64,000 nucleotides of DNA from an uncultured Chryseobacterium sp. (GCA_964457245.1 CAYWET010000006.1:21098-85097); one strand, 5' to 3'. Shown: positions 10,000 to 61,551, counted from the stretch's first letter. Notes: generated from the sequence alone by a model not told the origin. A program made the numbers and translations.

Positions 10000-10033
10000 G
10001 AGGTTTAAATCAATTGTTGTCGTTCAGTTCAAT

Positions 10034-44591: not shown

Positions 44592-47018
44592 GTGGACAAA
44601 TCCTCACTTATGGTTGCCATCACATTCCGATACATTGTCCACATATTCTTTTTACTGATACCTACCATTGCATCGGCTCAGGTAAATGTTGATTCGCTTT
44701 TACAGATATGGAATGATGAGAGTAAGCGAGACACAGTAAGGCTTGAGGCGCTAAAAAAAGTTGCAGGAGATGGGTATCTGCACACACATCCTGATAGCGC
44801 CTATTACTATGCGAATATATTGGCCGAATTTTCTTCCAACAAAGGATACCCTAAATATGAAGCTGATGCGATAAATATTCAAGGAACCTCGTATTACCAT
44901 CGTGGCGATTTGAAAGAAGCATCGAAACATTTTGCATTGAGTTATCAAAAACGAAAGGATCTTGGAGATAAACAGGGAGTTGCTGGGTCCTTGAATAATT
45001 TTGGACTGGTTTCCTTAAGACAGGGAAATTTTGAGGAGGCAAAAGGGTATTATTTAGAAAGCCTGACCACCTACCAAGGAATTCAGGATAGTGCCGGGAT
45101 AGCTCTTTCTCTTAACAATATTGGCAGTGTCTATAGAAATCAGGGAGACTATGATAGCGCGTTGGAATACTATTTCAAGAGTTTGTTCATAAGAGAGAAG
45201 ATTAATGATTTATCAGGGGTTGGATTTACAAACAACAATATTGGACTGATTCATATGAGAGAAGGAAGTTACGATAGCGCAGTACAGTATCTTTTAGTTG
45301 GTGGAAATATTCTTAAGGAAATCAACAACCAGCGTGGATATGCCGGTACAATGATTAACCTAGCCAACGTCTATAATTATCAGGGAGAACCATCTTTAGC
45401 ACTTGAGTATTATGAACAGGCAATGAATTCTATGAATGGTATTGGAGAAAAGAAGGGGGTTGCCATATGTTTAAGTAACATGGCTTTGATATGTAGGACG
45501 CAGGGTAACTATATCCGCGCTATTAAATACATGGTGGACGGTTTGGAAATGGAACGGAAAATTGGTGATAAGCAAGGGGAAGGAATCTCCCTTAACGGCA
45601 TCGGAACACTATATCTGGAGCAAAATGACGTTGAACATAGCCTTCCTTACTTTGAAGAGGCACTTTCCATATTGGAAGGAATTGGAGATAAGGATAACAC
45701 GACAATTGCTTTGCACAATATTGGAAATGTTCACATGAAGCGCAATGACCTTGATGCGGCCAAATTGTTTTTTACCAAGGCGCTAAAAATAAATCAGCTA
45801 ATTGAAGACAAGGCAGGAATTGCAAATTCCCTGAATAGTCTTGGTAATGTTTATAGTAAGTCAAATGATTTGGAAACGGCTGAGAAACATTATGAAAAGA
45901 GTGTTTTACTTAAGCGTAGCATTGGACTTAAAGAAGGGATGATTCCGTCACTCGTTGGGATTGCATTGATAAGTAATAGAATGGGGCGATTCGAAAAGGC
46001 AGTTGTTCTTGGTTCGGAAGCACTTGAGATTGGAAACGAATTAAACATGGTGTCGGGTATTAGAGATGCAGCGGAGTCTTTGTATTATTCTTATAAGGCA
46101 ACAGGCAACTCCTCCAAGGCTCTTGAAATGCACGAACTCTTCGTTGCGATGCGGGATAGCATTATGAGTGAAGAAAACCAGCGTGCCACTATCCGCACAG
46201 AGTTTCAGCACGATATGGATATGAAAGATGCTCAGATAAAACTGCTTGATGAGGAGAGTGCACGAAAGGCTGCCGAAGCACGCGCAGAGCGAAACAAACG
46301 CCTGTTAACCTTAGGTGTTTCCGCTTCGTTAATCGTTATTCTTTTCGGAGGGGCTTACTTTGTTCAACGCAACAGAAAACAAAGGCATCAGGTTGAGATA
46401 ACCCGTGCCGAGCTGGAGAAAAAACTGGTTGAGAACGATTTTCTTCGGTCACAACTGGATCCGCATTTCATTAAGAACGCCCTGATTAACATAGACCGAC
46501 TTTTGGCCGAAGGAAAAACGGAAGAAGCGCAACGTTATAACGACCGCTTCTACAAATTAATGAACCTAACACTTGACAATGCGAGAGAACAACTGATCGG
46601 TTTGGATGAGGAATTGGAAATGATCGAACAATATCTGGCCATTGAATCCGAGCGATTGGGAAACCGCCTACAGTGGTCAGTTACCACTGCCGATGATGTG
46701 AACCGGGCAGAGGTGGAAATTCCGCCAATGATTCTTCAACCGTTAGTGGAGAATGCACTGAAACATGGTGCAGATATGAAAACTGGCAATGGTCTTGTGA
46801 AATTGGAGGTACGTGTAGAGAACGACCGAATTCTTTGCGTTGTGGAGGACAATGGCGGTGGTGTCGACCTCGAAAAAATGAAACGTTCCACCTCGCATGG
46901 GTTGCGCATTACGAGAGAGCGTCTTGAGATGTTCAGTAAATTGAATTTGGCCGAAGCAAAACTGGATCTGATAAATATTGGAACAGGCACCCAAGCTGTG
47001 GTTTCATTTAAAATCTAA
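44592..47018 (+). CDS. TPR-repeat sensor fused to a LytS/YehU-type histidine kinase (His_kinase + HATPase_c)
   Basis: Signal peptide. ~12 TPR-like units (...LNNIG.VY...GDYD.AL.YY...). One TM helix LLTLGVSASLIVILFGGAYFV. Phospho-His motif QLDPHFIKNAL. ATPase motif LVENALKHG...DNGGG. Confidence 0.8.
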   Translation: MDKSSLMVAITFRYIVHIFFLLIPTIASAQVNVDSLLQIWNDESKRDTVRLEALKKVAGDGYLHTHPDSAYYYANILAEFSSNKGYPKYEADAINIQGTSYYHRGDLKEASKHFALSYQKRKDLGDKQGVAGSLNNFGLVSLRQGNFEEAKGYYLESLTTYQGIQDSAGIALSLNNIGSVYRNQGDYDSALEYYFKSLFIREKINDLSGVGFTNNNIGLIHMREGSYDSAVQYLLVGGNILKEINNQRGYAGTMINLANVYNYQGEPSLALEYYEQAMNSMNGIGEKKGVAICLSNMALICRTQGNYIRAIKYMVDGLEMERKIGDKQGEGISLNGIGTLYLEQNDVEHSLPYFEEALSILEGIGDKDNTTIALHNIGNVHMKRNDLDAAKLFFTKALKINQLIEDKAGIANSLNSLGNVYSKSNDLETAEKHYEKSVLLKRSIGLKEGMIPSLVGIALISNRMGRFEKAVVLGSEALEIGNELNMVSGIRDAAESLYYSYKATGNSSKALEMHELFVAMRDSIMSEENQRATIRTEFQHDMDMKDAQIKLLDEESARKAAEARAERNKRLLTLGVSASLIVILFGGAYFVQRNRKQRHQVEITRAELEKKLVENDFLRSQLDPHFIKNALINIDRLLAEGKTEEAQRYNDRFYKLMNLTLDNAREQLIGLDEELEMIEQYLAIESERLGNRLQWSVTTADDVNRAEVEIPPMILQPLVENALKHGADMKTGNGLVKLEVRVENDRILCVVEDNGGGVDLEKMKRSTSHGLRITRERLEMFSKLNLAEAKLDLINIGTGTQAVVSFKI

Positions 47019-47031
47019 GCCGGAAAAGGAA

Positions 47032-48942
47032 ATGAAGAAACTGACCACCATTCTTTTTGTTTTGACTCCGATGCTTCCGTGTAGCGCCCAGATCAATTCA
47101 GATTCATTAATGATTGTGTGGAATGATAAGAGTAAGACCGATACGCTTCGTCTTATGGCAATCGAACAGCTGAGCACAGCCTTGGTGTTTTCAAATCCAG
47201 ATTCTGCCATTTCTCTTGCCCAGTTGCAGTACGAATTTGCATTAGGCAAAAGAAGGAAATGGGAGTGTAGCGCCTTGAACCTTCAAGGGCATGCTCTTGC
47301 GGTAAAAAGTCAGTATGAAGAAGCGGTGGTTCTTTACAGGAAAAGCCTTGAAGTAGGTAAGGAAATCGGTGATGAGACTGGAATGGCCAGAGCACTCAAC
47401 AATATTGGTCTGATACTCATGGATGTGGGTGATCTTCCAGAAGCTATCGAACACTTTCAGCAAAGCCTTCTGTTGAAGGAGAAAACGAATAATCCAGCAG
47501 AGGTTATTCCTGCACTGATAAACATTGCAAATCTATATGAGACCATAGGGGAACTCGATACTGCCATTAACCGTTATCGGAGGACTCTCGAAATCTGTAA
47601 TCAGGTCGGACACGTACGTGGTTCAGCTTACTGTCTTGGTAATATGGGTATGGTGTACAAGACCAAGGGTGAATTTAACATTGCAGATTCTCTGCTGAAC
47701 GAAGCACTCGTTTTAGGGAAACAGCTGAACGATCAGCAGGCAATTGCACGATGCTTTGCGGGTCTTGGAATGGTTCAGAAGGAACGCGGTGAATACATAA
47801 AAGCGCGGGATTTTTTTCTGCAATGCGTACAAATCGCTGAATCGGTAGAAGATAAAGAAGGAATCGGTGCCATCTACTACAATCTAGGCGAGGTTTACAG
47901 GCTTCAGGGAGATTTGAGTAAGGCTCAAATTTATGCGGAGAAAGCAATTGGAGTTGCTCGAAGTGTATCACATGCTGCAGATATTAGAAATGCCGCAGAA
48001 TCCCTCTACAAGATTTACAAAGCCACGAATAGCCCCTCAAAAGCACTTGTAATGCATGAATTGTACATCGCTATGCGCGACAGCATCATGAGCGAAGAGA
48101 ATCAGCGCGCCACAATCCGTACAGAGTTTCAGCACGATATGGATATGAAAGATGCGCAGATAAAACTGCTCGATGAGGAAAAGGCGCGTAAAGATGCGGA
48201 GGCAAGGGCAGAGCGTAACAAGCGTCTGTTAACGTTAGGTATTTCCGCTTCGTTGATTGTCATTCTTATTGGAGGGGCTTATTTTCTTCAACGCAATAGA
48301 AAACAGAAACATCAGGTTGAAATTACGCGTGCGGAATTAGAGAAAAAATTGGTGGAGAATGACTTTCTACGCTCTCAATTAGATCCACATTTTATCAAAA
48401 ACGCTCTTTACAATATCGACCGTCTTTTGGTGGAAGGAAAAACTGAAGAGGCGCAACGTTATAATGACCGCTTCTATAAACTGATGAACCTGACACTTGA
48501 CCATGCTAGAGAACAATTGATTGGTCTAGATGAGGAATTGGAGATGATGGAACAATATCTGTCGCTTGAGACCGATCGGCTTGGAAACCGCCTGCAGTGG
48601 TCTGTTACGGTGGCCGATGATGTTAACCCTGCCGATATAGAACTTCCACCAATGATTCTTCAACCACTGGTAGAGAATGCGCTGAAACATGGCGCGGATA
48701 TGAAAAGTGACAAGGGTGAAGTTAAACTGGAAGTTCGGGTTGAAAATGACCGAATTCTTTGCATTGTGGAGGACAACGGTGGCGGTATCGATCTGGAAAA
48801 GGTGAAACGCTCAACCTCGCATGGGTTGCGAATTACTACGGAGCGTCTTGAGATGTTCAGTAAGCTCAACCTTGCAGAAGCTAGGTTGGATATGCAAAAT
48901 ACCGGTAACGGTACACGAGCGGTGGTGTCATTTGCAGTTTAA
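47032..48942 (+). CDS. Paralogous TPR-sensor/LytS-type histidine kinase
   Basis: Same architecture. The C-terminal ~290 aa are near-identical to the upstream kinase; the TPR region is divergent. The start was taken at MKKLTTILF (the six-frame ORF begins at 46978, overlapping the upstream gene). Confidence 0.8.
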   Translation: MKKLTTILFVLTPMLPCSAQINSDSLMIVWNDKSKTDTLRLMAIEQLSTALVFSNPDSAISLAQLQYEFALGKRRKWECSALNLQGHALAVKSQYEEAVVLYRKSLEVGKEIGDETGMARALNNIGLILMDVGDLPEAIEHFQQSLLLKEKTNNPAEVIPALINIANLYETIGELDTAINRYRRTLEICNQVGHVRGSAYCLGNMGMVYKTKGEFNIADSLLNEALVLGKQLNDQQAIARCFAGLGMVQKERGEYIKARDFFLQCVQIAESVEDKEGIGAIYYNLGEVYRLQGDLSKAQIYAEKAIGVARSVSHAADIRNAAESLYKIYKATNSPSKALVMHELYIAMRDSIMSEENQRATIRTEFQHDMDMKDAQIKLLDEEKARKDAEARAERNKRLLTLGISASLIVILIGGAYFLQRNRKQKHQVEITRAELEKKLVENDFLRSQLDPHFIKNALYNIDRLLVEGKTEEAQRYNDRFYKLMNLTLDHAREQLIGLDEELEMMEQYLSLETDRLGNRLQWSVTVADDVNPADIELPPMILQPLVENALKHGADMKSDKGEVKLEVRVENDRILCIVEDNGGGIDLEKVKRSTSHGLRITTERLEMFSKLNLAEARLDMQNTGNGTRAVVSFAV

Positions 48943-48955
48943 GTAGTTTCGAAGA

Positions 48956-49705
48956 ATGATTCGCGCCATCATTATAGAAGACATCCAAGACCATAGGGAA
49001 TTGCTGAAAGAGCGCCTCGAGGATCATGATGATGTAACAGTTGTGGGCGAATTCGTGAATGCTGACAAAGGGCTTGTTGGAATTAGGCAACATAAACCTG
49101 ATCTGATCTTTCTTGATGTGGAAATGCCGTCTGGAATGAATGGATTGGAGATGCTTGAACAGATTCCCACCGATGATCGTGATTTCGGACTGATTTTTAC
49201 CACCATGCACGAGAAGTATGCGCGTAGGGCGATTGACATGGCATGTTTAGATTACCTAGACAAGCCAATTGTGGCTGAAAAGTTAGCCGAGGCTCTTAGA
49301 CGATTCAGAGAATCGGATAAGGAATCTCTGACCAAGCGCAACGGTATATTGGGCAAGGAGAACATGCTGGCAATTGCCAACATCCAAAAGGGGAAACGGT
49401 ACGAAACAATTGTTGATGCTCGAAACATCATATACTGCAAGGCAGACGGGAATTATACCGAATTCTATCTTAAAGATGGCCGCTTTTTATCCGCAAGCAA
49501 GGGCATCGCACATTACACTAAGTTGCTTGAATCATATGGAATGCTAAAGGTGCATCGGTCTTACCTGATAAATCTGAATCATGTCGATTCAATTGCCCAA
49601 GATGAAGTTATTATGAGAATGGAGGCACACCCGGAAAGTGTTAAGCGTTCCGTGTCTGTTTCCCGTGCCTATTCGCAGATTCTTCAGGCCCGCTTGTTGA
49701 GGTAA
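48956..49705 (+). CDS. LytTR-family two-component response regulator (receiver + LytTR DNA-binding domain)
   Basis: Receiver with acidic pocket IIIEDIQD and phospho-Asp context LIFLDVEMP. C-terminal LytTR pattern (...YCKADGNYTEFYLKDG...HRSYLINL...). Confidence 0.85.
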   Translation: MIRAIIIEDIQDHRELLKERLEDHDDVTVVGEFVNADKGLVGIRQHKPDLIFLDVEMPSGMNGLEMLEQIPTDDRDFGLIFTTMHEKYARRAIDMACLDYLDKPIVAEKLAEALRRFRESDKESLTKRNGILGKENMLAIANIQKGKRYETIVDARNIIYCKADGNYTEFYLKDGRFLSASKGIAHYTKLLESYGMLKVHRSYLINLNHVDSIAQDEVIMRMEAHPESVKRSVSVSRAYSQILQARLLR

Positions 49706-49954
49706 GTACCCTTCTGCTTTCTGACCAGTACCGCCATTTGCATAAGCGGTATTCTCCTGATTTTCCATTCGTACAGAGAATCCTACCATTCGACAGGAAA
49801 TGATGTCCATTCATACATCTTGATCTTCCTGTGCTCACTTCTCAAATACGTTTGCTCCTGTAATCGAAAACAAAAACATGAGCAAAGTTACCGGTCATAA
49901 AGTTCAAACCACCTCTTGTCAATTGAATGGCACAGTTCGGTTTGAACAAGGGTA

Positions 49955-50368
49955 ATGGACACTCGAAATAAAGAATTTAACAAACTGAATAAGATGAAAA
50001 ATCACCCTAAAACCATAGCAGTATTAGAACTCCTGCATGTGCTTGCCGAAGATGGGATACACCGTATGAGTTTGAACCAGATCACCTGTCTCAACTCATC
50101 AGGAGCTTACACTCACATTCATTACCTGAATGGGAAAAAAGTAGAGGTCGGCAAAAACCTGAGAAGGTTTGAAGAGGCATTGGAGCCGTACCAATTTTTC
50201 AGGGTGCACAAAAGTCACGTGGTGAACATGGAGCGTATAGAACGCTACCGTGCAACCAAAAGTGGAGGCACAGTGGAGCTTTCGGATGGCAGAACCCTAC
50301 CAGTGGCACGCTCCAGAAAATCAGCATTTCTCAAGGCATTCAAAGAACTGGCAACAGTAACCATATAG
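49955..50368 (+). CDS. Stand-alone LytTR DNA-binding domain protein (no receiver)
   Basis: 137 aa. LytTR pattern ...YTHIHYLNGKKVEV...FRVHKSHVVNMERI.... The start may be the internal Met at 49994. Confidence 0.7.
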   Translation: MDTRNKEFNKLNKMKNHPKTIAVLELLHVLAEDGIHRMSLNQITCLNSSGAYTHIHYLNGKKVEVGKNLRRFEEALEPYQFFRVHKSHVVNMERIERYRATKSGGTVELSDGRTLPVARSRKSAFLKAFKELATVTI

Positions 50369-50402
50369 AAAACAATCATTCAACAATCAAAAAATCAAGA
50401 TC

Positions 50403-51815
50403 ATGAAAAAGACAGCACTTATTATTCTACTCCTTGCAGCGGCTAACGTCTTTGCCTTACCGCAGGAACTCCAACAGGCCATAACGGAAATCAAGAACGA
50501 CCTGCACGAAATACGCTCAGTACGATATACCGTTAATCAGAGCATCCTACCTGTTTCAGGTTCAATAGTTGACTTTCAACTTAATAACACGGATAGTAAA
50601 GGTCGTGTTTCTTCGACCACATATCGTGTTGACCTAGCAGACATTGACCCTCTACTTCTTACAAGTGGTGTGGAACGAGACATGATGAAAGTGGAGGTTC
50701 ATGCAAAGGGAAAACAACGTTTCATTACCGAACTGAAGGGCGGTGAGGTGACGCGTTACACAGACCGTTTTAAGCTTGATGTACGCGATATGGATAACGC
50801 ACGACAACTTATGGATGCTTTTAAGAAAGGCATTGCTGTTGCTGAAAGTATGGACACGTATAAAGGTCAGTTCGGCTCGTTGCGAGAGGTGTTACTAGAG
50901 CTTTCGTCCTTGGTAAAACCATTGGGCAATACGGTTTCTGTACAGAAAATACTCGTTTCTGAAGACAGAGCAGAGAAACTGCAGCACGTAATCCGCAGAG
51001 GAGATGGAGTCGTTCTCAAGCATGAGTTCAACCTAAAAGATATGAACGCTACCACCGTAGATTACGTGGCCAGCGGCCGCAACTTGAGTATTAAATTGAA
51101 TACGTACGGGGGAAGCAAAGCGGTAAAAAGATACCAGAATGATCTGGCAAAAGACTTCGTACCCAATTTTACGGTAGCGGCAGAAACCGTTGAGCAAGCT
51201 AAAAAGATAAAAGCCCTTTTTGAACTGGCAATCAATGCTGCCAATGGCAATGCTCTGAAGAAAACACATTCTGCTCCGTCACGGTCATCTGCTCCACCAA
51301 GTGGATCTTCTGCCAGCAGAAAAACATCTTCCGCACAAACTCCATCTCAGGATAATGGTGGATTTCCAAAGGTGGAGTTGACCAAAGACCCTGAAAGTGG
51401 AAAATATGCTTGGGCTGGCGTATATCACTTTCCAGGACAATCTCTAGAGGAGCTTTACCGAGCGGCAGAGGCTTCCATACCAACTAACATGGTTATTTCA
51501 AAAACGGACAACCAAATCGTTTTTCAACGTATGGGAGGAAACCGAACCGCCCTGAGATTGGGAGGAGACGCCTATATCTCCTTCACCATAAAAGTGAGCT
51601 TCAAAGAAGGAAAGATACGAATGGAAGAGACCGACTTCTTCTATGATAACCGCGCTTGGGGATTCTCGGCACCACAAACTCTTGAAACCATGAATGCCAA
51701 GAAACTGAACAAAATCGTAGGAGACATTAACGAACGACTCACGAAGGGCAACAACACTATGATGGATGGCCTAAAGACCAAGTTGAGGCTCACTTCCCAA
51801 GAAGAAGATTGGTAA
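50403..51815 (+). CDS. Secreted hypothetical protein, 470 aa
   Basis: Signal peptide MKKTALIILLLAAANVFA. Ser/Pro-rich linker in the middle. No motif recognised. Confidence 0.6.
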   Translation: MKKTALIILLLAAANVFALPQELQQAITEIKNDLHEIRSVRYTVNQSILPVSGSIVDFQLNNTDSKGRVSSTTYRVDLADIDPLLLTSGVERDMMKVEVHAKGKQRFITELKGGEVTRYTDRFKLDVRDMDNARQLMDAFKKGIAVAESMDTYKGQFGSLREVLLELSSLVKPLGNTVSVQKILVSEDRAEKLQHVIRRGDGVVLKHEFNLKDMNATTVDYVASGRNLSIKLNTYGGSKAVKRYQNDLAKDFVPNFTVAAETVEQAKKIKALFELAINAANGNALKKTHSAPSRSSAPPSGSSASRKTSSAQTPSQDNGGFPKVELTKDPESGKYAWAGVYHFPGQSLEELYRAAEASIPTNMVISKTDNQIVFQRMGGNRTALRLGGDAYISFTIKVSFKEGKIRMEETDFFYDNRAWGFSAPQTLETMNAKKLNKIVGDINERLTKGNNTMMDGLKTKLRLTSQEEDW

Positions 51816-51882
51816 GAGTGAACCCTAAACCCGAAAGGGATTGAAAGCAAAAACAGTTCAATAACCATAAATATCAATAATC

Positions 51883-52077
51883 ATGAAAACAAAACTCGTT
51901 TTACTAATTGCCACAGCTGGACTTATGACATTCAGCTCTTGCAAGAAATGCTACACGTGTCAATTTGATGGCAGTGCGTCCACCGAGGAGATATGCAAGC
52001 CAAATAATATGAACCAGAAAGGCTGGCGAGAATATGTGAAGAACTACGAAGAGTGGTATGATGCAGATTGTAAGTGA
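51883..52077 (+). CDS. Small Cys-rich lipoprotein/peptide, 64 aa (mature part roughly 45 aa with 4-5 Cys)
   Basis: Signal peptide with lipobox-like ...LMTFSSC. Mature region CKKCYTCQ...C...C. Placed between operon genes with short spacers. Confidence 0.45.
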   Translation: MKTKLVLLIATAGLMTFSSCKKCYTCQFDGSASTEEICKPNNMNQKGWREYVKNYEEWYDADCK

Positions 52078-52157
52078 TCATTCTTTAGCCCTGTCAACGT
52101 TTTGAACGCTGGCAGGGTTTAATAATCTTTACAACACAACCCTTAAGATAAAAGACC

Positions 52158-53630
52158 ATGAAAACATTAGTAATTCAAAATACCGTTTCGCTGTTCATTG
52201 CAGCTACTTTGTCTATCAGTATTGCAGTGGCCAATCAGATAAACATGCAAGATGGAGTAACTGTAACAAGTTGTTCTGGAACAATTTACGATCATGCAGG
52301 ACCAAACGGAAGTATCCAATCGTATAGCAGCCATAGGGTTTTAACCATACGGTCTGCCGAGCCAAATAAAGCGGTTCAACTGGTCTTTGAAGAACTAAGG
52401 TTTGGATATAGCAACGCATTCAACCTGAAAATATATGATGGTGGTAACACTCAATCCCCGTTGCTGGTAGAGTTTACCACCGGATGGGACAACAGCCCCT
52501 ACATCGGCACGGGGATCATGGCCAATTCGGGAGAAATGACCCTTGAATTCACCTCAATATCGGTCTATCCTGCGCACGAAACGGCAGATGGTTGGAAGGC
52601 AAGTTGGAACTGTGTGGAAAAAAGTTACAACATGCAGAACGGAAGCGTGACCGCATGCGCTGGAGCACTGCACGATCCCGGAGGCCCCAGTGGTTCGAGT
52701 TCCGAGAATGAAACCTACATTTTTACTATAAACCCAGAAAGCTCCGGACAAGCAATTGTAATGGACATTCTATTCGCGAATCTATGGGTGAGTGATCTTA
52801 CTCTGTTCGATGGCTTAAACACAACCGCACCTGTTATATGGTCTGGAACTGGAATAATTACGGACATTCCGGCCCAAATAGCGCCTTCTGGAGCGATGAC
52901 CGTTGAACTGGTTGTCTCTGGTTCTTCAGCTCCGAATTTTCTTGGGGTTTGGCATTGCATAGATCAATCGGGCATTGAAATGTCAGACGGTACCACCGCA
53001 AGCTGTTTTGGCACTATCTATGACAGCGGAGGTCTTAATGGAGATTATTCTAATAATGAAGACCATACTTATGTAGTTTCAACCAACGAAGTGAACACGG
53101 TGATAGATTTCAGATTGTTTTCATTTGGCTCCGAATTTGGGCATGATACTCTTTGGGTGTATGATGGAGCAAGCGCTGACCCAGCGAACGTTTTAATTAC
53201 GGGTTCGGGTTATCTCAATGGGTCATCAATTTTTGTTAGTTCCAATTCCAATGCGATGACTTTCAGATTCAAGTCTGATGGTACCGGGACAGAGCGTGGT
53301 TTTATTGGAAACTGGTCATGTCGCGATACAATTTCAGCATGGTCGGTTAGCACTGGAGTTGAGGACCATCCTTATTCACTGGAATCTCCTATCATCTTTC
53401 CAAATCCATCAAGCGGACGGATGAACATGGTCATACCTTGGTCAACCCAGGATGTCGAGATACGAGTGTTCAATGCTATAGGTCAGATAATGCATCAAGA
53501 GCGGGTCGGGAATCTGACGAAAGGTGTTTCCAGAACACTGAACCTTTCAGATTTGATGGATGGCATCTATTGGTGTAATGTCAGCAGTAAAGAAAAAACC
53601 GCTTGCCAGAGAATTGTGATTCGGCATTGA
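52158..53630 (+). CDS. Secreted T9SS cargo protein with three CUB-like repeats and a C-terminal sorting domain
   Basis: Signal peptide. Thrice-repeated C-x-G-x-[IL]-x-D-x-G-G-x-x-G-x-Y modules. CTD ...FPNPSSGRMNMVIP...VEIRVFNAIGQ...GIYWCNV.... Confidence 0.65.
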   Translation: MKTLVIQNTVSLFIAATLSISIAVANQINMQDGVTVTSCSGTIYDHAGPNGSIQSYSSHRVLTIRSAEPNKAVQLVFEELRFGYSNAFNLKIYDGGNTQSPLLVEFTTGWDNSPYIGTGIMANSGEMTLEFTSISVYPAHETADGWKASWNCVEKSYNMQNGSVTACAGALHDPGGPSGSSSENETYIFTINPESSGQAIVMDILFANLWVSDLTLFDGLNTTAPVIWSGTGIITDIPAQIAPSGAMTVELVVSGSSAPNFLGVWHCIDQSGIEMSDGTTASCFGTIYDSGGLNGDYSNNEDHTYVVSTNEVNTVIDFRLFSFGSEFGHDTLWVYDGASADPANVLITGSGYLNGSSIFVSSNSNAMTFRFKSDGTGTERGFIGNWSCRDTISAWSVSTGVEDHPYSLESPIIFPNPSSGRMNMVIPWSTQDVEIRVFNAIGQIMHQERVGNLTKGVSRTLNLSDLMDGIYWCNVSSKEKTACQRIVIRH

Positions 53631-53807
53631 CCTCATTCGAAAACGTACTGGTTAACCCCGTATCCAAGATTCGTTGGTTAAGGAATGAGGCCGGGTGTTG
53701 TTCGCGTACATTTTACTACTTTTCGACTAAACTGTTAATTTGGCCGACCAATGAGGTGCTTTTTGAGCTATAGCACAAAAGGGCGATTATACCAAGAAAC
53801 CAATACG

Positions 53808-54968
53808 ATGAAAATAAATTCAATCATAGCAGGACTCATGTTGTTCTGGGTCACAGCCGCACAGGCTCAGTTTGGAGTGGGGGCAAGAGTAGGTGTTTCT
53901 ATGAGTACCATGGTTGGGGTCCGTGGTGCCGATCTGATTCCAAACCCAGGTTTGGTAACGGGCGTTTCCGGAGAGTTCCGATTGGTGGATAATCAGTCGC
54001 TTTCGTTCTACCTACAACCAGAATTCGCATTAGAGCAAAAGGGCTATGCCACCAAATTTACTTCGGGTAGTTTCAGGTCCGAAACCCAATATAATTTTGA
54101 TTATGCCTCTTTACCTGTTGCAGCCAAACTGATTTTTGGAAGCGGCAAATTCAAAGGGGGAATAAATGTGGGAGTTGCTCCTGCCTTGCTTATTGGAAGG
54201 TATGCACAGTACAAGAACAGCGATGGTGATAGGAGTAGGACTGTAATAAGCAGGAGTAGCGTAAAGGTTTTTGACATCAATGCCTTTATTGGCGGAGTGA
54301 TGGAGTATGCGCTTGGTCCTGGGGCCCTTTTTGCTGACCTCAGGTATACGCAGGGCTTTGTAGACCCATTTTCCAGCTACTTGGCAAAGCCTCACCTTGG
54401 TTCCAGTTACCTGAATGCATCGCCATCGTTTTCGGTGGGTTACGTTTTCAGAATAGGTGGAGGTAAGACATCTTCGGTTCCTTCCGGAAGTTCGTATTCA
54501 GATCCGTCTGATTCGGGTTTTACCGACATTGAGAACACCCAAGAAGAACCTGAAACCGTTTGGGAAGATGAAAGCGAACCTGTTGAAACCCGCCCCTCAA
54601 CGATAGATGAAGAAGTTAGCAAATCAAGTTCGCAGGAGCTAAGGCCTTCGCCCAAGCCGCGTGAGAACACGGCAGCGGTCAGTTCAGATTTTGAGGAAAT
54701 GATCGAACTCAACAAACACTTTGACGTGATTGCTGATGTACATGCATCAGACACCGATAAAGAGATCAGTAAAACTGAGATTCTTAGCAGGTTCAAACAT
54801 GGAGACGTTCTGGTAAAGATTGAGATTGATAAGGTGGTCGTTGACTATTTCGGCATCAACGAGTTTCTTGGTGCTATCCGTCTCAATCATTCCCGGTATA
54901 AAATTGCCGACCGTATTAAGGATGAAAACGGCATGATTAGCGAAATAACCATGCGTAAGATCGGATAA
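53808..54968 (+). CDS. Outer-membrane beta-barrel protein fused to a C-terminal domain of unknown function
   Basis: Signal peptide MKINSIIAGLMLFWVTAAQAQ. Porin-family-like beta pattern over ~220 aa. Ser-rich linker. C-terminal ~130-aa soluble domain. The six-frame ORF starts at 53751. Confidence 0.55.
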   Translation: MKINSIIAGLMLFWVTAAQAQFGVGARVGVSMSTMVGVRGADLIPNPGLVTGVSGEFRLVDNQSLSFYLQPEFALEQKGYATKFTSGSFRSETQYNFDYASLPVAAKLIFGSGKFKGGINVGVAPALLIGRYAQYKNSDGDRSRTVISRSSVKVFDINAFIGGVMEYALGPGALFADLRYTQGFVDPFSSYLAKPHLGSSYLNASPSFSVGYVFRIGGGKTSSVPSGSSYSDPSDSGFTDIENTQEEPETVWEDESEPVETRPSTIDEEVSKSSSQELRPSPKPRENTAAVSSDFEEMIELNKHFDVIADVHASDTDKEISKTEILSRFKHGDVLVKIEIDKVVVDYFGINEFLGAIRLNHSRYKIADRIKDENGMISEITMRKIG

Positions 54969-54981
54969 GCTTTTTAAGGAT

Positions 54982-55557
54982 ATGATGAGATCAATAGTAT
55001 TTGTTGTAGGGGTTCTTCTTTTGGGTTCGGAATTGAAAGCTCAGGACCTGAATCTTACTGAGCAAGAGCGTGCCGCATTTGCGCAACAGGCACTTGAGAA
55101 AGCGCGGGAATTGAGTATGTACATAGACAAACTCTGCAACAAGAGCACACCATCCTCAATTCAAGTAGAGGCCATGGATTTGGCTTTAGACCTTTTTAGA
55201 GACCACGAACGAATAGTTGAAGTTTCGAAAAAGAACTCTGATGACCTACTTTACCCCACTATTGACCGTTACCTCAATCGGTTAGTGAACTATAACTACA
55301 CCAAAGTGGAGGTGACATGGTACGATGTTTCCTATGCTTCTGACCTGAAACCAGGAACCGATGGCCGTTACTACGGAACCATAACCGTGTTTCAAAAATT
55401 TGTGGGTTATGTTGGGGATGGCATTGTAGCATACGAAGACGTTACGCAGAAAAACATTGAGGTGATACTGGAACCGCGCATCAAACGTGTTGGAGATCAA
55501 GAATTCGAGGCTCTCATTGTTCTTCTTGGTGACATTCAGGTAATGCAGACCGAATGA
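54982..55557 (+). CDS. Secreted hypothetical protein, 191 aa
   Basis: Signal peptide. The ORF stop overlaps the next start (ATGA). Confidence 0.55.
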   Translation: MMRSIVFVVGVLLLGSELKAQDLNLTEQERAAFAQQALEKARELSMYIDKLCNKSTPSSIQVEAMDLALDLFRDHERIVEVSKKNSDDLLYPTIDRYLNRLVNYNYTKVEVTWYDVSYASDLKPGTDGRYYGTITVFQKFVGYVGDGIVAYEDVTQKNIEVILEPRIKRVGDQEFEALIVLLGDIQVMQTE

Positions 55558-56408
55558 GCAAGAAACTACTCTTACCTATTCTAGTTATTGTTTTCCAACT
55601 CCCATTAAGTGTGTTAGGGCAGTCTGTTGGTAAGCAGGTAGTGGAGCACGAGTTGAAATTATTGGTCAAGAACTACGATGAGTTCATGGCGCGGTTCAAC
55701 TTTACCATGGATCCTTTCGGTAACCCCATTAAAGACACAGCCCATGTTTACTTGGAAAACGTAGCAGGGATTCAAAAAATTGATCGAAAACTCTCAGTGT
55801 CGTTCCTTATTGATGCGGAACTTTGCGAACGACATCCAGATTTGTGCGAACGTTTTGTGGATGATGTTACTGACAAGGAAAATCCGTATTTGCTCAATTT
55901 CCATGACCCGAATTGGTACTGCGTGCGGCCCGCAACGGTCAGGTTCAACGGGAGTGAACAAAGCCTTAGTCTAACCATGCAGGTGGAAGTTCATGACGGG
56001 CGACAGTCAAAATGGGTAATCTGTGGTGTAGATGCTCCCTTTCTGCCTGCGATAAAAACGGAGCACGACAAAGATCGACTCATTGCACCAGATAGCAACA
56101 GCAGCGGTTTTGTGGCGCTAAGACGTGCTTTTGAAGATGTTGAACACTTTGATGAATACCTGCCGAGGAGTTTTGGAACTGATGGACTGACTCGTTTGGC
56201 CACGGCTTGCAAAAACGGGCAGCTGGAATATGTCAGTGCTAAAGGGCAACAGGAGTATCATCTGCTTCAAATACCGGGCTGGGTTGTAATGATTCAATAT
56301 TTCAAACGGAAAGATGGTAATCGAGGGTGGCTTATTTCTGAACTGCACCCGTTAACGGATGAGGAAAAAGAAATCTATTTGAAGGAATATCTCAACATCG
56401 GTCAATGA
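55554..56408 (+). CDS. Secreted hypothetical protein, 284 aa
   Basis: Signal peptide MSKKLLLPILVIVFQLPLSVLGQ. 4-bp overlaps with both neighbours. Confidence 0.55.
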   Translation: MSKKLLLPILVIVFQLPLSVLGQSVGKQVVEHELKLLVKNYDEFMARFNFTMDPFGNPIKDTAHVYLENVAGIQKIDRKLSVSFLIDAELCERHPDLCERFVDDVTDKENPYLLNFHDPNWYCVRPATVRFNGSEQSLSLTMQVEVHDGRQSKWVICGVDAPFLPAIKTEHDKDRLIAPDSNSSGFVALRRAFEDVEHFDEYLPRSFGTDGLTRLATACKNGQLEYVSAKGQQEYHLLQIPGWVVMIQYFKRKDGNRGWLISELHPLTDEEKEIYLKEYLNIGQ

Positions 56409-58699
56409 GGTGGTTGATACATATCGTTTTGGTGTTGATTCCCATGGCCGGGGTTGCACAGCAAACTTTTGAGGTAAGTCCCACAGAAAAGGAACAGTTT
56501 GTTCGAGATGCACAATCGGTTGTAAAAAGGTATGGTTTAAATCTCATTGAATTAGGCGACAGTCTGCGAGAGCCGTGGGAAAAGCAAGTAGAAGAAGTGG
56601 CCATCCTGAACCTGTTCGATCGAACGGATGTCCTGGTTCCGAATGATATTGACGCGTCTGGAGAACAATCCAAGGAAAAATCAATTTCAGCGTATCTAAG
56701 TACTCTGAAAATCAATTATTCTCGCTTTGGACTGGATATTGATACACGAATAGATCGCTCACGGAGCAACGCTTTATATATAGATTCGAAAAGCGCTAAT
56801 CCATACCTGTTTGTGAAGGTGGTGGTGGAGAGAAGCCTGAAAGGAAAGAATGATCAAGACATTTCGATTGACACCACCTTGTGGTTGGATGTTTATGTAC
56901 TTTATTGGCTTAACGGAGACGGAACGTATGACCCCAATGCCTACATCTATGCAATAGAACCGCACGACCCTGACACCAAGTATGAACAGGTGCCGATAAA
57001 GGGAGAACGGCCACAAGCTGTCGCCAGAGTAGATCAACAGACCATCACCAGCCCAACGACACCTAAACCGACCGAAGAGAGCGTGCCTACGGCTCAAAGC
57101 CAACCGAAGCAAACAGATACGGACTCTCAAAAGACTGTTCCGGTTCCCCAAGAACCCAAGGATTGTCCATACAAACCACCACGTTTTGTTTCTTCATCTG
57201 ACCACAAAAGGTTATGGAAGGAATTTGTTTATTCCAGCAACGCCTACAGGAAGGCAGTACTTGAGAAGGGTGTACGTGGAAGCGGAACCATCTGGTTTAC
57301 CGTTAAGGCTGATGGCGCTATATACGACCCAACACTGGGGATTGACTCTGAAGTATTTGAAGGCAAAGAATATGCGATAAAGGAGGTTGCTCAACAGTTG
57401 ATGACCGAAAGTTCATCAAACGGAAACGCTTGGATTCCTGCAGAAGCCAACTGCGAAAAGGTTGCCCGTCAGGTAAGTGAGGAGGTGACCTTTGAATTAC
57501 ACAGAGTTAAGAGCAAAGGTTCTGAACTCACGCCTTCTAACAGGGTTCAGGTTCCTCAGAATGAGATTCCTCCTAAGCCGCTATCTAGAAAACAACAACG
57601 GAGAGGCGAAAGAGCGAATCGCAAGGAGGAAAGAGCGTGTGCCGAAGAATACCGTAGACCTAGATTCAACTCCTGCAGCAGGCACAAAAAGGAGTGGAGG
57701 GCATACGTTGGTAAGAACAACCTTTTTGTTAAGGCGGTTTTACAGGATGGGGTAAGAGGGTTTGTTGATGCAAGTGCGAGCATTACCAGAAATGGAGATA
57801 TAGAACCGGGCTCTACGCGAATAAGGCTTGGAAACCATGTGCGAAAACGGTTTGAGGCAACAGATGTAGCTATAAAACTCATTGAAGGAAGCACGGAGGG
57901 GAATAACAAGTGGATACCAGGAAAGCATCAAGGCGCAGCCGTTCAGAAACGAGGTGGCGTACACCTAGCCTATGGTAAAAGTTGGCTTGACCCGAATACT
58001 GCGATTGAATCGGGTCTGTTGACCGAACGTGGGAAGCGTAAAATGAAACGTAAAGCCGCATGGCTAGACCATAAGAAGGAAAAGATCGGAGGGGTTCATT
58101 TCAACATCGGGGGAGGTTACGCTTTTCCACTTGGTGCCAATGGGTTTAAGGGCGGTGTAGCTGAAGCTGCTTTTGGTGGATTGTTTGGGCATCATGTTGG
58201 AATGGAATTGAAATATCGGACGGTTATCGATCAGCAAGCGGGAAGATGGTTTGAGAATCTTTCTTCCAAGGCACAGACTTTCGTTCAAGTAGATAGGGCC
58301 AGTACGCTTCTTCACACATTAAGTTTGGGCTTAATATTTAACACCTCTAAAAAGCGGGTAAGACCTTACTTTACGATTCATGGTGGAGTCAATTGGCTCA
58401 GTATAGATGTAAAAGGTCAAGCTCAAGATTTCGGAGATGCTTCACCTCGATATGGTGCTGTTAGGTATTCTACCGACATGGGGTGGCACTTATCTCCTGG
58501 GTTCGGAATAGACTTCAAGATTCCGAAATATGGTAGCTTTTTCATTGCAGGAGAATTTAGCATGTACATACTCAATTTTCGGCCAATGGAATTTGATGCC
58601 AACCTAGGCTCCAATATTATTTTGTTTAGCAATCATTTCAGCTTAGGAGACAATTTGCAATTACCGGTGACCATTGGCTTCCGATTCTCCAGGTGGTAA
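56405..58699 (+). CDS. Secreted protein with two TonB-C-like domains and a C-terminal outer-membrane beta-barrel-like region
   Basis: Two segments (WKEFVYSSNAYRKAVLEKGVRGSGTIWFTVKADGAI and WRAYVGKNNLFVKAVLQDGVRGFVDASASITRNGDI) resemble the TonB C-terminal fold motif. C-terminal Gly/aromatic-rich beta pattern ending ...IGFRFSRW. Confidence 0.5.
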   Translation: MRWLIHIVLVLIPMAGVAQQTFEVSPTEKEQFVRDAQSVVKRYGLNLIELGDSLREPWEKQVEEVAILNLFDRTDVLVPNDIDASGEQSKEKSISAYLSTLKINYSRFGLDIDTRIDRSRSNALYIDSKSANPYLFVKVVVERSLKGKNDQDISIDTTLWLDVYVLYWLNGDGTYDPNAYIYAIEPHDPDTKYEQVPIKGERPQAVARVDQQTITSPTTPKPTEESVPTAQSQPKQTDTDSQKTVPVPQEPKDCPYKPPRFVSSSDHKRLWKEFVYSSNAYRKAVLEKGVRGSGTIWFTVKADGAIYDPTLGIDSEVFEGKEYAIKEVAQQLMTESSSNGNAWIPAEANCEKVARQVSEEVTFELHRVKSKGSELTPSNRVQVPQNEIPPKPLSRKQQRRGERANRKEERACAEEYRRPRFNSCSRHKKEWRAYVGKNNLFVKAVLQDGVRGFVDASASITRNGDIEPGSTRIRLGNHVRKRFEATDVAIKLIEGSTEGNNKWIPGKHQGAAVQKRGGVHLAYGKSWLDPNTAIESGLLTERGKRKMKRKAAWLDHKKEKIGGVHFNIGGGYAFPLGANGFKGGVAEAAFGGLFGHHVGMELKYRTVIDQQAGRWFENLSSKAQTFVQVDRASTLLHTLSLGLIFNTSKKRVRPYFTIHGGVNWLSIDVKGQAQDFGDASPRYGAVRYSTDMGWHLSPGFGIDFKIPKYGSFFIAGEFSMYILNFRPMEFDANLGSNIILFSNHFSLGDNLQLPVTIGFRFSRW

Positions 58700-58717
58700 C
58701 AACTAAAAACAGATCAC

Positions 58718-60214
58718 ATGAAACAAAGCTTTAGCCTCCTTCTTTTAATGATTTTGAGCCACGCGGTCATTTCGCAGAACTGCAACCTTACCGAAGACCG
58801 AAAAGACGGCTACGGGAACATACTTCGTGGTACAGAATGGTCATATACCGATGCCAGTGGCAACTACATGCACCTTCAGTTAGACCGAACCAAGGATCGA
58901 TATACGTTTGTTGTTAGTCTGGATCAGCCCACAAGTAGCGCGGTTAGGTTTAAGATAGATGGAGAGATTCATCCTATCATATTCAATCTTAGCAATGGAG
59001 CAACCGCTAAAGCTTGGGTAAGCGAAAGCCGTGTCTATGAAAGCGAGAACGGTACAGACCGCGTAGCATTTGCAGAACAGTACACTTTTGATGCTTCTGG
59101 TCTTGCAAACTTTGATAATGCAAGAGTAACCGCCATTGTTTTCCGATGCAGTGGTCGCTCGCTTTCAACAGGAAATGCGGTGAATGAAATTCGAATTGTT
59201 CCTGATCTCGAAGCTGGAGAAAGTCTGAGTAATGCCATGAGTTGTCTTCAGAAAGAAGATGAAGCAGTTGCGCTCAAACCAGCTCCCAAACCACGAAAAG
59301 AGTCGCATGCAATCACTACTTCCACTTCAGGAAGCGCCACTTCAGACGCTCTAATGAGAGAACTGATCCAAGTAGTTGGAGAAGGCACCAAGAACATTGA
59401 TGAAAGTGTGAAAGAAAGTGGCACTACCCAAATGGAACAGAACATGTTGATGATGGAGAAGCTTGAAAACCTTTCCGCGGCCATAGAAAAACTCAACGAA
59501 ACCAAAAAAGAGGAAAAGGAATTTGTACCACGTGTATTCGGATTTGGTGCTTACTTCAAAACCAATTTTCTTTTTAGCGAAATTGATATGAACTACGGAC
59601 TGGCGGAAGCTCAGGTTTCTAAATTCCTTTCTGGAACCAGTATTAACATGTCATTGAATGCAGGGATGAGGGCTCGTGTTGGTTTTAGGTTTGAGATTAC
59701 TGCCGATTTTCTTACGTCTTTCAACGAGGTCGTTAAGTACACCGATAGCATCTACCCTCGAACAGTTACTCCCGACACCATTTATTTTGGACAACCGTAT
59801 CTTGAAACGTTTGAAAGAAGTCAAACCTGGTCGTTCTATGATGTTGGTTTGAACCCCTTGCTTGTCATTCGAAGGGGTAAGGTGAACATTTATCTCGGTT
59901 TGTCAGCATCATACATCAGGATTGAAGGAAAGTACAAGGATTCGAGCCCAAGTCAGCTTCAGGATCGTAAAGAGACAGGACAGATAACCGCGTTCAGACA
60001 AGGGGTATCACTTGGGTTTATTTTAGGAGGGGAGTATCTTATTACACCGCATTTTGGCGTTCGGGTTGAATCTGGATTAAGGTATTTTGGCATCGGAAAA
60101 ACGGTAATAAGCAGCAATGACTTATTTGAATATGATGATGACTCGAGTGTAGGGGACAATCGGCAAAACGTTTTCGGTTCGTTCGCGAGAATAGGCGGGA
60201 GTTTTTATTTCTAA
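58718..60214 (+). CDS. Secreted hypothetical protein with a C-terminal beta-barrel-like domain, 498 aa
   Basis: Signal peptide. C-terminal alternating pattern ending ...FARIGGSFYF (terminal aromatic). Confidence 0.5.
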   Translation: MKQSFSLLLLMILSHAVISQNCNLTEDRKDGYGNILRGTEWSYTDASGNYMHLQLDRTKDRYTFVVSLDQPTSSAVRFKIDGEIHPIIFNLSNGATAKAWVSESRVYESENGTDRVAFAEQYTFDASGLANFDNARVTAIVFRCSGRSLSTGNAVNEIRIVPDLEAGESLSNAMSCLQKEDEAVALKPAPKPRKESHAITTSTSGSATSDALMRELIQVVGEGTKNIDESVKESGTTQMEQNMLMMEKLENLSAAIEKLNETKKEEKEFVPRVFGFGAYFKTNFLFSEIDMNYGLAEAQVSKFLSGTSINMSLNAGMRARVGFRFEITADFLTSFNEVVKYTDSIYPRTVTPDTIYFGQPYLETFERSQTWSFYDVGLNPLLVIRRGKVNIYLGLSASYIRIEGKYKDSSPSQLQDRKETGQITAFRQGVSLGFILGGEYLITPHFGVRVESGLRYFGIGKTVISSNDLFEYDDDSSVGDNRQNVFGSFARIGGSFYF

Positions 60215-60231
60215 ATTAAAAGAAGCAGATT

Positions 60232-60771
60232 ATGTCAACGCAGACTGTAGTCGTAGTCAATCAAAAGAGCATGGCCGTTGGCCTACTGCTCACTTTTTTC
60301 TTTGGGCCTTTAGGTATGTTGTATTCAACAGTTTTAGGTGCAGTGATCATGTTCTTCGTTAACATATTGGCATTCGTTTTTACGGCAGGTATCGGCCTCT
60401 TGCTTACTTGGCCCATTGGCCTGATTTGGTCAGGAGTTGCCATCAGCAGTCATAATAGTAATCTTGTTTCTACCGGTGCCGCCACTCCACACCAAAAAAA
60501 CCAAGAAGCACAGGCCCCAAGTGCGCCCGTTACAGAGCGACCCGCTGCAACAGATCAACCACCAGTTGAAAAGACAACTCCCGCCAAAGCTTACCAAACT
60601 GTACCCAAGGCTTCGGGCTGTGCCAAGTGTGGAACCGAGATGGAAGCGGATGACAAATTCTGTTTCAACTGCGGCACCGAAAGAAAACAACAGCAGTTTT
60701 GTGCAAATTGTGGAAACACAATAACGGCCAATAACAAGTTCTGCAGTGGTTGTGGCGCCAAGGTAGCTTAA
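60232..60771 (+). CDS. TM2-domain membrane protein with a C-terminal double zinc ribbon
   Basis: Two TM helices with a GPLGMLYS motif (TM2-like). Two CxxC...CxxC pairs (CAKCG...CFNCG; CANCG...CSGCG). Confidence 0.55.
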   Translation: MSTQTVVVVNQKSMAVGLLLTFFFGPLGMLYSTVLGAVIMFFVNILAFVFTAGIGLLLTWPIGLIWSGVAISSHNSNLVSTGAATPHQKNQEAQAPSAPVTERPAATDQPPVEKTTPAKAYQTVPKASGCAKCGTEMEADDKFCFNCGTERKQQQFCANCGNTITANNKFCSGCGAKVA

Positions 60772-60802
60772 CCCCTAATATGAACCTTAAATACCCGTTA
60801 AC

Positions 60803-61546
60803 ATGAACTTTCTCACCTTCCTGTTTCCTTACATAGAAACCGTTACATCGGGAAGCTTTCTCCGAAAATTCTTTGGTATCCTGTACAAGGTTTTCGGCTG
60901 GTTTTTCTTTGGTGGCAGTATTGTAGCCATGCTTATGGGGTTGTTTGCCGCATTCAAAACAGAGCAGATGATGATTGTGCTCGGATCACTGTTCACGGCT
61001 CCGATATTGGCGGCTGGCGGTTATTTGCTTTTGCAGATAAGCCTTTACAGGTCTAAGACACTTACAGAATTGACCAAAGAAGATTATACCGCCATTCCAA
61101 TTGTTTCCATTTTTCTTCGGTACGTGGGCGAACTTTACTTTGCTGTGGTACTTGTTCAAGGGCTCATAATGCTTATAGGTTCTTTGTTTGTTGCAAATTC
61201 GTTTTTCGGTGGATTTTCGTCTATGTTGCATTGGATAGATTTGCCATTTGTTAATGAGTTACGATACAACGGAGGGGCGTTTGTTGCAGTCCTTCTTATG
61301 TACGTAGCTGCGCTTATCGGTGGGGTGCTCGTATTGTTGTTCAGTTATCTGTTGGCAGAACTGGTAGTTGTGCTGGCAGAGATAGCTTCCAACACCAGAA
61401 AGCTGAATACAGGGGTGTCGGTTCCGTTAGAAGAACAGGGCACTTCGATTACTGAAGAAGCCCCCCGGCCTGGCAAATGTTCGGCCTGCGGACAACAGAA
61501 TACCGAAGAAGACACTTTCTGTATCAACTGTGGCAATAAACTCTGA
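60803..61546 (+). CDS. Polytopic membrane protein with a C-terminal zinc ribbon
   Basis: ~6 hydrophobic helices. C-terminal CSACG...CINCG. Confidence 0.55.
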   Translation: MNFLTFLFPYIETVTSGSFLRKFFGILYKVFGWFFFGGSIVAMLMGLFAAFKTEQMMIVLGSLFTAPILAAGGYLLLQISLYRSKTLTELTKEDYTAIPIVSIFLRYVGELYFAVVLVQGLIMLIGSLFVANSFFGGFSSMLHWIDLPFVNELRYNGGAFVAVLLMYVAALIGGVLVLLFSYLLAELVVVLAEIASNTRKLNTGVSVPLEEQGTSITEEAPRPGKCSACGQQNTEEDTFCINCGNKL

Positions 61547-61551
61547 ACACC

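Follow-up and report, generated by a model that had tools for sequence, protein, structure and literature searches.

What can a very small envelope protein contribute to the two-component system beside which it is encoded? MgrB, a small protein that PhoP induces, exerts negative feedback on PhoQ and has two essential Cys in its periplasmic part (10.1101/2022.12.22.521624), and NlpE, a CXXC-bearing lipoprotein, signals to CpxA (PMC6538781). The LytTR Regulatory Systems (LRS) of the HdrRM/BrsRM type combine LytTR repeats that have a 12-bp spacer with autoregulation (PMC6193735). Here we consider a 64-codon open reading frame (ORF) within 64,000 nucleotides of DNA from an uncultured Chryseobacterium sp. 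(GCA_964457245.1, CAYWET010000006.1:21098-85097; hereafter the window), encoded 3' of two sensor kinases, a response regulator and a stand-alone LytTR protein (Table 1). Its product is a small envelope protein attached to a two-component system, a new instance of a known sort. We propose that the peptide is both the terminal cistron of a LytTR operon and a kinase-linked envelope accessory or feedback protein. To this proposal as a whole, the established parts included, we give an even chance; the specific feedback step taken alone is put forward tentatively, as possible but doubtful.

The likeness to MgrB lies in a very small envelope protein, controlled by the two-component system on which it would act, whose conserved periplasmic Cys presumably pair in a disulfide and which would share a compartment with the sensor domain. 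MgrB, however, is a bitopic membrane protein, whereas the window peptide is a predicted lipoprotein; there is no sequence or family match between the two, the sensor of the window kinases is a tetratricopeptide repeat (TPR) array and not a PAS domain, and at the window locus we only infer feedback. With NlpE the peptide shares the character of a CXXC-bearing lipoprotein, which in NlpE signals from the periplasmic side to an inner-membrane sensor kinase, but NlpE is 100-216 aa long, is built of lipocalin-like and OB domains and is not encoded with its kinase, and no homology was detected. The resemblance to MgrB and NlpE, as far as the analogy can be drawn, is in logic only, without homology.

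The comparison with HdrRM and BrsRM is closer in anatomy. Here too a stand-alone LytTR gene is first in the operon, direct repeats of ~9 bp with a ~12-bp spacer lie just upstream of the promoter, and further downstream is the gene of a small protein whose N-terminal segment is hydrophobic. In LRS that small protein is a polytopic membrane inhibitor with a cytoplasmic face, whereas the window product has a cleavable lipoprotein signal peptide, whose 13-residue h-region is its only hydrophobic segment; no cognate transmembrane inhibitor was found downstream, and a classical kinase/response-regulator pair is attached to the window locus. No cytoplasmic part of the peptide would remain after cleavage, and its acting as an inhibitor of the LytTR protein is topologically implausible. 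The locus resembles LRS only in part.

The 64-codon ORF is a real conserved gene. Its length by itself is no evidence for this, since 99 ORFs of at least 40 aa lie within 16 kb. It opens with ATG and closes with TGA (52075-52077), and its translation, MKTKLVLLIATAGLMTFSSCKKCYTCQFDGSASTEEICKPNNMNQKGWREYVKNYEEWYDADCK, agrees exactly with that given in the sequence-only reading which first singled it out. A search of 5.8 billion proteins returned an identical protein and, at 47-83% identity, six clusters; more distant lipoproteins, of 62-76 aa, came from a full HMMER scan of 1.8 billion representatives, and a profile search gave 245 matches at E<=1, nearly all of them 56-75 aa long. Exactly four non-lipid Cys are present in 101 of 109 single-domain relatives, and the C+3-x-x-C+6 spacing recurs in 89 of them. 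The lipobox Cys is invariant in 63 sequences and, together with its flanking F/S/S/K/K residues, among 8 close homologues; in a 12-sequence alignment C26, C38 and C63 are invariant along with it, and the close clade carries the motif C-K-P...W. Between loci, the proportion of differences is 0.5-1.0 at synonymous sites (pS), which are saturated, and 0.05-0.40 at non-synonymous sites (pN). Because synonymous sites are saturated while non-synonymous change is low, the reading frame is under purifying selection. The profile matches, the invariant lipobox and this selection uphold the claim of a small lipoprotein gene. A conserved Cys spacing and a homologous small ORF in syntenic loci, whose lack would have told against that claim, were looked for and found. 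The 25 nt that precede the ATG are near-identical in the window, L003, L007 and both copies of the gene at L011 (L011a and L011b), though the synonymous sites of the ORF are saturated, and this leader is probably the translation-initiation region.

To which family does the peptide belong? Pfam and NCBIfam assign no family to it or to 63 relatives, and match the PG1828 model at the signal peptide only. The PG1828 family lipoproteins (NF050142) are likewise Bacteroidota proteins of ~60 aa with a very similar signal peptide and lipobox, but the mature parts are unrelated and the match is confined to residues 1-23; at 13.4 bits for the window protein and no more than 25.4 bits for its relatives, against a cut-off of 50, the peptide is not a member. 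All named family matches are labelled 'hypothetical protein' and come from metagenome-assembled genomes (MAGs) of Chitinophagales, Flavobacteriales or Brumimicrobium. The peptide thus represents an uncharacterised, unnamed family of Bacteroidota mini-lipoproteins with roughly 250 members. The suggestion that annotation pipelines could overlook it is weak, the gene being already called in the collection and its NCBI MAG relatives being annotated, if only as hypothetical.

The N-terminus of the precursor consists of MKTK, with two Lys, a 13-residue hydrophobic core, LVLLIATAGLMTF, and SS-C20, the cleavage-site residues being F-S-S-C. The PROSITE lipoprotein pattern reads {DERK}(6)-[LIVMFWSTAG](2)-[LIVMFYSTAGCQ]-[AGS]-C, and by-eye comparison finds the precursor in agreement with this classical lipobox rule. 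A basic n-region, a hydrophobic h-region and a lipobox with an invariant Cys, as expected of a signal peptidase II (SPase II) substrate, are all present. By these criteria the ORF product is a lipoprotein precursor, with lipidation and SPase II cleavage predicted. Gly-Gly is absent from the whole precursor and the leader is a Sec-type lipoprotein signal peptide. In Bacteroidetes a surface-export signal, K-(D/E)2, Q-A-(D/E)2 or S-D-D-x-E / SDDFE, lies just after Cys+1 (PMC5080379). The lipid-modified Cys of the window peptide is followed by K-K-C-Y-T, without a single acidic residue, and the K-K-C motif is present in 89 of 109 relatives. The sequence-only reading was right to find no acidic export signal here, C-K-K-C-Y-T bearing no resemblance to K-(D/E)2 or SDDFE (PMC5080379), and the product is predicted not to be a surface-exposed lipoprotein.

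The AlphaFold2 model of the mature part, built on a 63-sequence alignment, reaches a predicted local distance difference test (pLDDT) score of 91.2 and describes a beta-beta-alpha-beta mini-domain whose strands span residues 4-9, 15-19 and 42-44 and whose helix spans 26-40 (mature numbering). The four non-lipid Cys, C23, C26, C38 and C63, are C4, C7, C19 and C44 in this numbering; in the model the first strand carries C4 and C7, the second ends in C19 and the third contains C44. Two disulfides would probably tie the first, central strand (C4/C7) to the flanking strands (C19/C44). A Zn(Cys)4 site was rated less likely, since the compartment is oxidising and the model places C4 and C7 on one and the same beta-strand. 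No PDB sequence matched the family profile, and the peptide model gave no informative structural match; as modelled, the mini-domain is, with confidence, a new small fold. Relatives of 99-113 aa with nine Cys (P0046, P0083, P0089, P0108, P0119 and P0120; L016, L018 and L019) look like tandem duplications of the mini-domain behind one lipobox.

The stand-alone LytTR gene follows the response regulator gene after a 249-bp gap, in which three phased direct repeats and a -7 box are found. The phased CCATTC array is the only intergenic one in the window. By chance ~0.7 matches would be expected, and the scan turned up a single further one, at 2941, which is within an ORF (330-4937) and needs one mismatch. 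The Bacteroidetes -7 promoter consensus is TAnnTTTG. At the same place in L003, L007, L008, L011, L014 and L023 there are two or three TTCAT-type repeats with a 21-bp period, a single TAnnTT(T/C)G box lies 37-41 bp downstream of the last repeat in 7 of 7 loci examined, and the same layout is visible in L104. A hallmark of LytTR-regulated promoters is a set of 9-bp repeats, 12 bp apart, on their upstream side (PMC6193735; PMC4227749), and the repeat and spacer geometry of the window agrees with that description (PMC6193735). No terminator-like site was found on the + strand between 49955 and 51883, and no second LytTR box or -7 box directly upstream of the peptide; since the peptide has no such box of its own, its co-transcription with the LytTR gene is assumed. 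The hairpin that follows the peptide gene (-18.4 kcal/mol, z -4.5) is kept in 6 loci, where 94% of cells are paired and 3 pairs show compensatory changes, as against 29-48% paired in slid controls; Rfam gave no match on 49600-52300. The transcription unit, as read from these signals, is made up of the repeats, the -7 box, the LytTR gene, the p470 gene, the peptide gene and the terminator, its genes presumably being transcribed together. The conservation of repeats, -7 box and terminator across loci bears out the sequence-only reading in placing the gene in a LytTR-associated operon. The middle gene product, p470, comprises a helix/beta module present twice, a linker rich in S and P and, at its C-terminus, a DUF4468/TBP-like domain, which structure prediction and fold search leave as its sole recognisable part and which is itself of unknown function.

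Table 1. Coordinates of the peptide gene, its operon and the adjoining genes in the window.
Feature	Position	Strand	Basis
64-aa lipoprotein precursor gene	51883..52077	+	ORF, homologues, lipobox and four Cys, purifying selection, AlphaFold2
Signal peptide, codons 1-19	51883-51939	+	read from sequence
Cys20 codon (predicted lipid-modified)	51940-51942	+	
Mature domain, 45 aa	51940-52074	+	
A-rich, G-poor leader TCAATAACCATAAATATCAATAATC immediately 5' of ATG	51858..51882	+	conserved across loci
Three direct repeats CCATTC(G/A)	49765, 49786, 49807 (49765..49813)	+	exact 21-bp phasing, LytTR-box architecture
-7 box TACGTTTG	49847..49854	+	match to TAnnTTTG, 41 bp past last repeat
Stand-alone LytTR DNA-binding protein, 137 aa, without receiver domain; first operon gene	49955..50368	+	PF04397, 2.3e-18
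470-aa secreted protein (p470), function unknown; middle operon gene	50403..51815	+	
Intrinsic-terminator-like hairpin and U-rich tail	52087..52131 (stem-loop 52087-52119)	+	10 nt after stop codon
Two tandem sensor kinases	44592-47018 and ~47032-48942	+	
Response regulator, receiver and LytTR domains; presumed binder of the direct repeats	48956..49705	+	domain match, synteny
CUB-domain protein with type IX secretion C-terminal sorting domain; downstream neighbour	52158..53630	+	

Orthologues of the stand-alone LytTR gene co-occur with the peptide, which lies 3' of orthologous kinase, response regulator and stand-alone LytTR genes in the window, L003-L006, L007, L008-L010, L011, L014 and L023. 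It is found with the module in L104 as well, so that 8 of 9 orthologous loci carry it and L103 does not; L103 and L104 were added by a search from p470. A metagenome scan with the stand-alone LytTR alignment returned 80 loci, 4 of them true orthologues and 76 loci of response-regulator LytTR paralogues: every true orthologue with enough downstream DNA is accompanied by the peptide, and none of the 76 paralogues is. The genes between LytTR and peptide turn over completely among loci. All that is left of them in L003 is a 37-codon remnant of the p470 C-terminus directly before the peptide, and in L014 the peptide directly follows LytTR, the operon being reduced to these two genes. Conservation within the cluster is highest for the peptide (54-77% identity; regulators, 34-57%). 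In L003, L008 and L011, but not in the window, a small XRE-type helix-turn-helix gene (74-81 aa) lies on the opposite strand a few hundred bases from the peptide.

Each kinase begins with a signal-like segment, which is followed by a TPR array, a single transmembrane helix, a basic stretch and the His_kinase (PF06580) and HATPase_c domains. Because the signal-like N-terminus and the single transmembrane helix are followed by the basic stretch and then the kinase, the TPR arrays are predicted to be periplasmic. We propose that Sec export, lipidation and SPase II cleavage would leave the mature domain tethered to the membrane: facing the periplasm, as there is no surface-export signal, and lipid-anchored rather than diffusible, as the SPase II lipobox is invariant. 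The phosphorylated LytTR regulator, the stand-alone LytTR protein or both would turn the operon on via the repeats, and the lipoprotein would thus be made when the kinases fire, in the compartment that it would share with their predicted periplasmic sensors. There it could be an accessory or feedback partner of the sensors, with a logic like that of MgrB on PhoQ or NlpE on CpxA, and possibly with redox or trafficking sensitivity through its Cys. A kinase-linked accessory or feedback role is the most likely one and makes the most economical model. As to the two kinases themselves, their C-terminal halves (~320 aa comprising coiled coil, transmembrane helix, His_kinase and HATPase) are by eye ~90% identical and their TPR sensor arrays only 27-29% identical, which suggests either that two different sensors feed one response regulator or that the transmitter half was recently gene-converted.

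Several observations weigh against the proposed accessory or feedback role. L103 has the kinase, the response regulator, LytTR and a p470 counterpart, p469, without the peptide, in whose place there are 94 nt with no tblastn match; the module can therefore exist without it, and a strict 1:1 co-occurrence of LytTR and peptide was rejected on this counterexample. Gene order varies, the L104 peptide, a diverged homologue of 69 aa with a different signal peptide, being encoded upstream of the p470 homologue (p461). Distant clades sit in unrelated contexts, for example P0042 (L013) between an M16 peptidase and ddl/ftsZ and the Brumimicrobium glaciale copy (L020) next to a TonB-dependent receptor, which argues that the fold as such is not a signalling device. 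The four further Cys of the sequence-only reading are present and three of them invariant, but C23 is Tyr in the well-sampled homologue P0004, hence one of the four is lost there. Finally, the Cys pairing rests on secondary-structure topology and not on coordinates, and binding to the repeats is assumed from geometry only, for either LytTR protein.

Some of these same facts would suit a plain member of the LytTR regulon, that is, a small structural or protective envelope lipoprotein switched on by LytTR without any signalling role. Such a protein could share its fold with relatives in housekeeping contexts and be dispensable to the module, as in L103, and it would fit an output that is clearly envelope-directed, since everything encoded in the downstream block is an envelope protein bearing a signal peptide. 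It would hardly be expected, however, to surpass every other gene of the cluster in conservation, to be alone among the non-regulatory genes in persisting in 8 of 9 loci amid turnover, to make up the L014 operon with LytTR alone, or to show the constraint on its signal peptide described below, which is unexpected in a passive structural protein. We regard this explanation as credible though unlikely. The absence of the peptide from L103 (5519-5614; Flavobacteriales MAG GCA_020635475.1, JACJZR010000024.1) is clean and provides a natural deletion control; the 94 nt there separate p469 from a 101-aa membrane protein, and the same protein follows the peptide in L023.

The sequence-only reading likened the peptide to autoinducing or bacteriocin-like products, going by its place after LytTR regulators; such a product would be secreted and sensed by the adjacent kinase. 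The locus does resemble the agr, comCDE and blp/pln pheromone loci in having a small gene beside a kinase and a LytTR regulator, phased direct repeats, and a leader more conserved than the mature part, and the TPR arrays of the kinase sensors are a peptide-binding fold. It differs from them in that the leader is a Sec/SPase II lipoprotein signal and not double-glycine or AgrD-type, no dedicated exporter or processing enzyme is encoded, the product is predicted to be anchored and folded, and the organism is Gram-negative and Flavobacteriales-like. Pfam scans of window genes 41911-62838 and the gene tables of 9 related loci revealed no C39/ABC exporter, immunity gene or AgrB, and no modification gene was found in any scanned neighbour. 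An AgrD-type system would have AgrB and a polytopic AgrC-type kinase, and the window kinases are instead composed of TPR, a single transmembrane helix and His_kinase; a double-glycine pheromone or class II bacteriocin would have the leader ending in Gly-Gly (or Gly-Ala/Ser), C39 exporter and immunity gene that are missing here. The invariant lipobox predicts a lipid anchor, the 45-aa mature part is modelled as a folded domain and not as a short linear or cyclic peptide, and crossing of the outer membrane is not expected without a surface-export signal. The breadth of the lipoprotein family, other clades of which reside in housekeeping neighbourhoods, weakens the idea further. A secreted autoinducer or bacteriocin is thus very improbable. 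Of the earlier interpretation the LytTR operon lipoprotein stands and the autoinducer or bacteriocin does not, although the pattern of leader and mature-part conservation does point toward a signalling peptide.

What might that pattern mean? A conserved leader with a faster-evolving mature part is typical of signalling peptides and pheromone precursors; that a signal peptide should be conserved more strongly than the mature protein is unusual and calls for explanation. In the LytTR-linked clade mean identity is 71% for the signal peptide and 46% for the mature part, the signal peptide being higher in 71 of 78 pairs, whereas the Chitinophagales clade shows the reverse (39% versus 68%, with the signal peptide higher in 2 of 210 pairs). 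Between the window and L007, secreted proteins encoded nearby have 9-41% identity in their signal peptides and 38-59% in the remainder. Over the first 22 codons the window and L003 differ by 10 synonymous and 2 non-synonymous changes, and because these changes are mostly synonymous the constraint is on amino acids, not nucleotides. For the mature part, synonymous saturation permits dN/dS, as a test of diversifying selection, to say only 'purifying, weaker than in the signal peptide'.

One explanation is that the signal peptide is itself active, either as a fragment that signals after SPase II cleavage or as the helix of an uncleaved precursor that contacts the transmembrane helix of the kinase. 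A signal peptide under a sequence constraint of its own, as found here, is a mark of the enterococcal type of pheromone, which also calls for an Eep-type site-2 protease, a PptAB-type exporter and a released hydrophobic hepta- or octapeptide. In enterococci, Lsp and Eep excise sex pheromones from the signal peptides of lipoproteins, and PptAB exports them (PMC4173765). But the mature Cys and fold are conserved too, the L104 homologue, also in the operon, is an exception whose signal peptide is unrelated, the 13-residue hydrophobic core is too short for a stable transmembrane anchor, and no Eep/PptAB-like genes were seen in the loci, linkage to the locus not being required for such genes. An active signal peptide therefore appears quite improbable. 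A wider proposal is that the lipoprotein precursor is a source of ligand for the TPR kinases, with either the signal peptide or the fast-evolving, disulfide-stapled mature domain read by the TPR array, which together with the repeat-driven operon would close an auto-induction loop. This we regard as improbable; if true, Bacteroidota would have a peptide-based signalling circuit that draws on a lipoprotein precursor. To our knowledge, no peptide-based signalling circuit has been established in Bacteroidota.

Could the peptide instead serve its downstream neighbour, as an anchor, chaperone or inhibitor of an adjacent protein secreted by the type IX secretion system (T9SS)? A T9SS cargo gene lies within two genes 3' of 6 of the 9 peptide copies in eight peptide-bearing loci, a raw count, uncorrected for the background frequency of such genes. 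In the window this gene is that of the CUB-domain protein, whose membership in the unit is uncertain because it lies beyond the terminator. The cargo proteins are mutually unrelated (CUB, PKD, LRR and DUF5122), a conserved terminator stands between peptide and cargo genes, and L007 and L008 have no such neighbour, all of which makes a T9SS partner highly improbable. L011 has two paralogous peptide copies (8001-8201 and 9829-10029) that agree in every signal-peptide codon and share their leader and terminator; copy b is directly upstream of a T9SS/CHU_C cargo gene, and copy a is followed by a minus-strand helix-turn-helix gene and then a T9SS cargo gene. The L104 homologue (3792-4001) sits after a CUB/T9SS gene and before the p470 homologue. 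Elsewhere in L104, at ~1500-2281, there is a stand-alone LytTR ORF that is absent from the gene table, and after it comes an unrelated lipoprotein of 132 aa whose lipobox, ...FSSCKK, is similar.

Pairs of TPR-type kinases and LytTR regulators are numerous in Flavobacteriales-like bacteria, and we found nothing in the literature on what such kinases sense. The window locus offers a compact, testable handle on one of these pairs, comprising a defined promoter with phased repeats, a stand-alone LytTR protein and a tiny conserved envelope protein that may act back on the sensor. The clean promoter and terminator anatomy, the confidently predicted mini-fold and the inverted signal-peptide conservation raise its significance; that the LytTR-linked clade is narrowly distributed, and that one natural locus is without the gene, lowers it.

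The window contains two further gene groups. At 330-14659, on the - strand, are three tandem ORFs of ~1540 aa each. A Peptidase_S74 (endosialidase chaperone) domain lies at the end of the first, and Pfam matches neither of the others at E<=1e-5. Downstream of the peptide, the block at 53751-62838 consists entirely of signal-peptide-bearing envelope proteins: outer-membrane-protein beta-barrels, two unknown proteins, zinc-ribbon proteins, a protein combining a zinc ribbon with TonB_C, and proteins of 764 and 498 aa with barrel-like C-terminal parts. This block is syntenic with L007 6880-14547 at 35-59% identity, and M48 peptidases are encoded at the equivalent downstream place in L007, L008 and L012.
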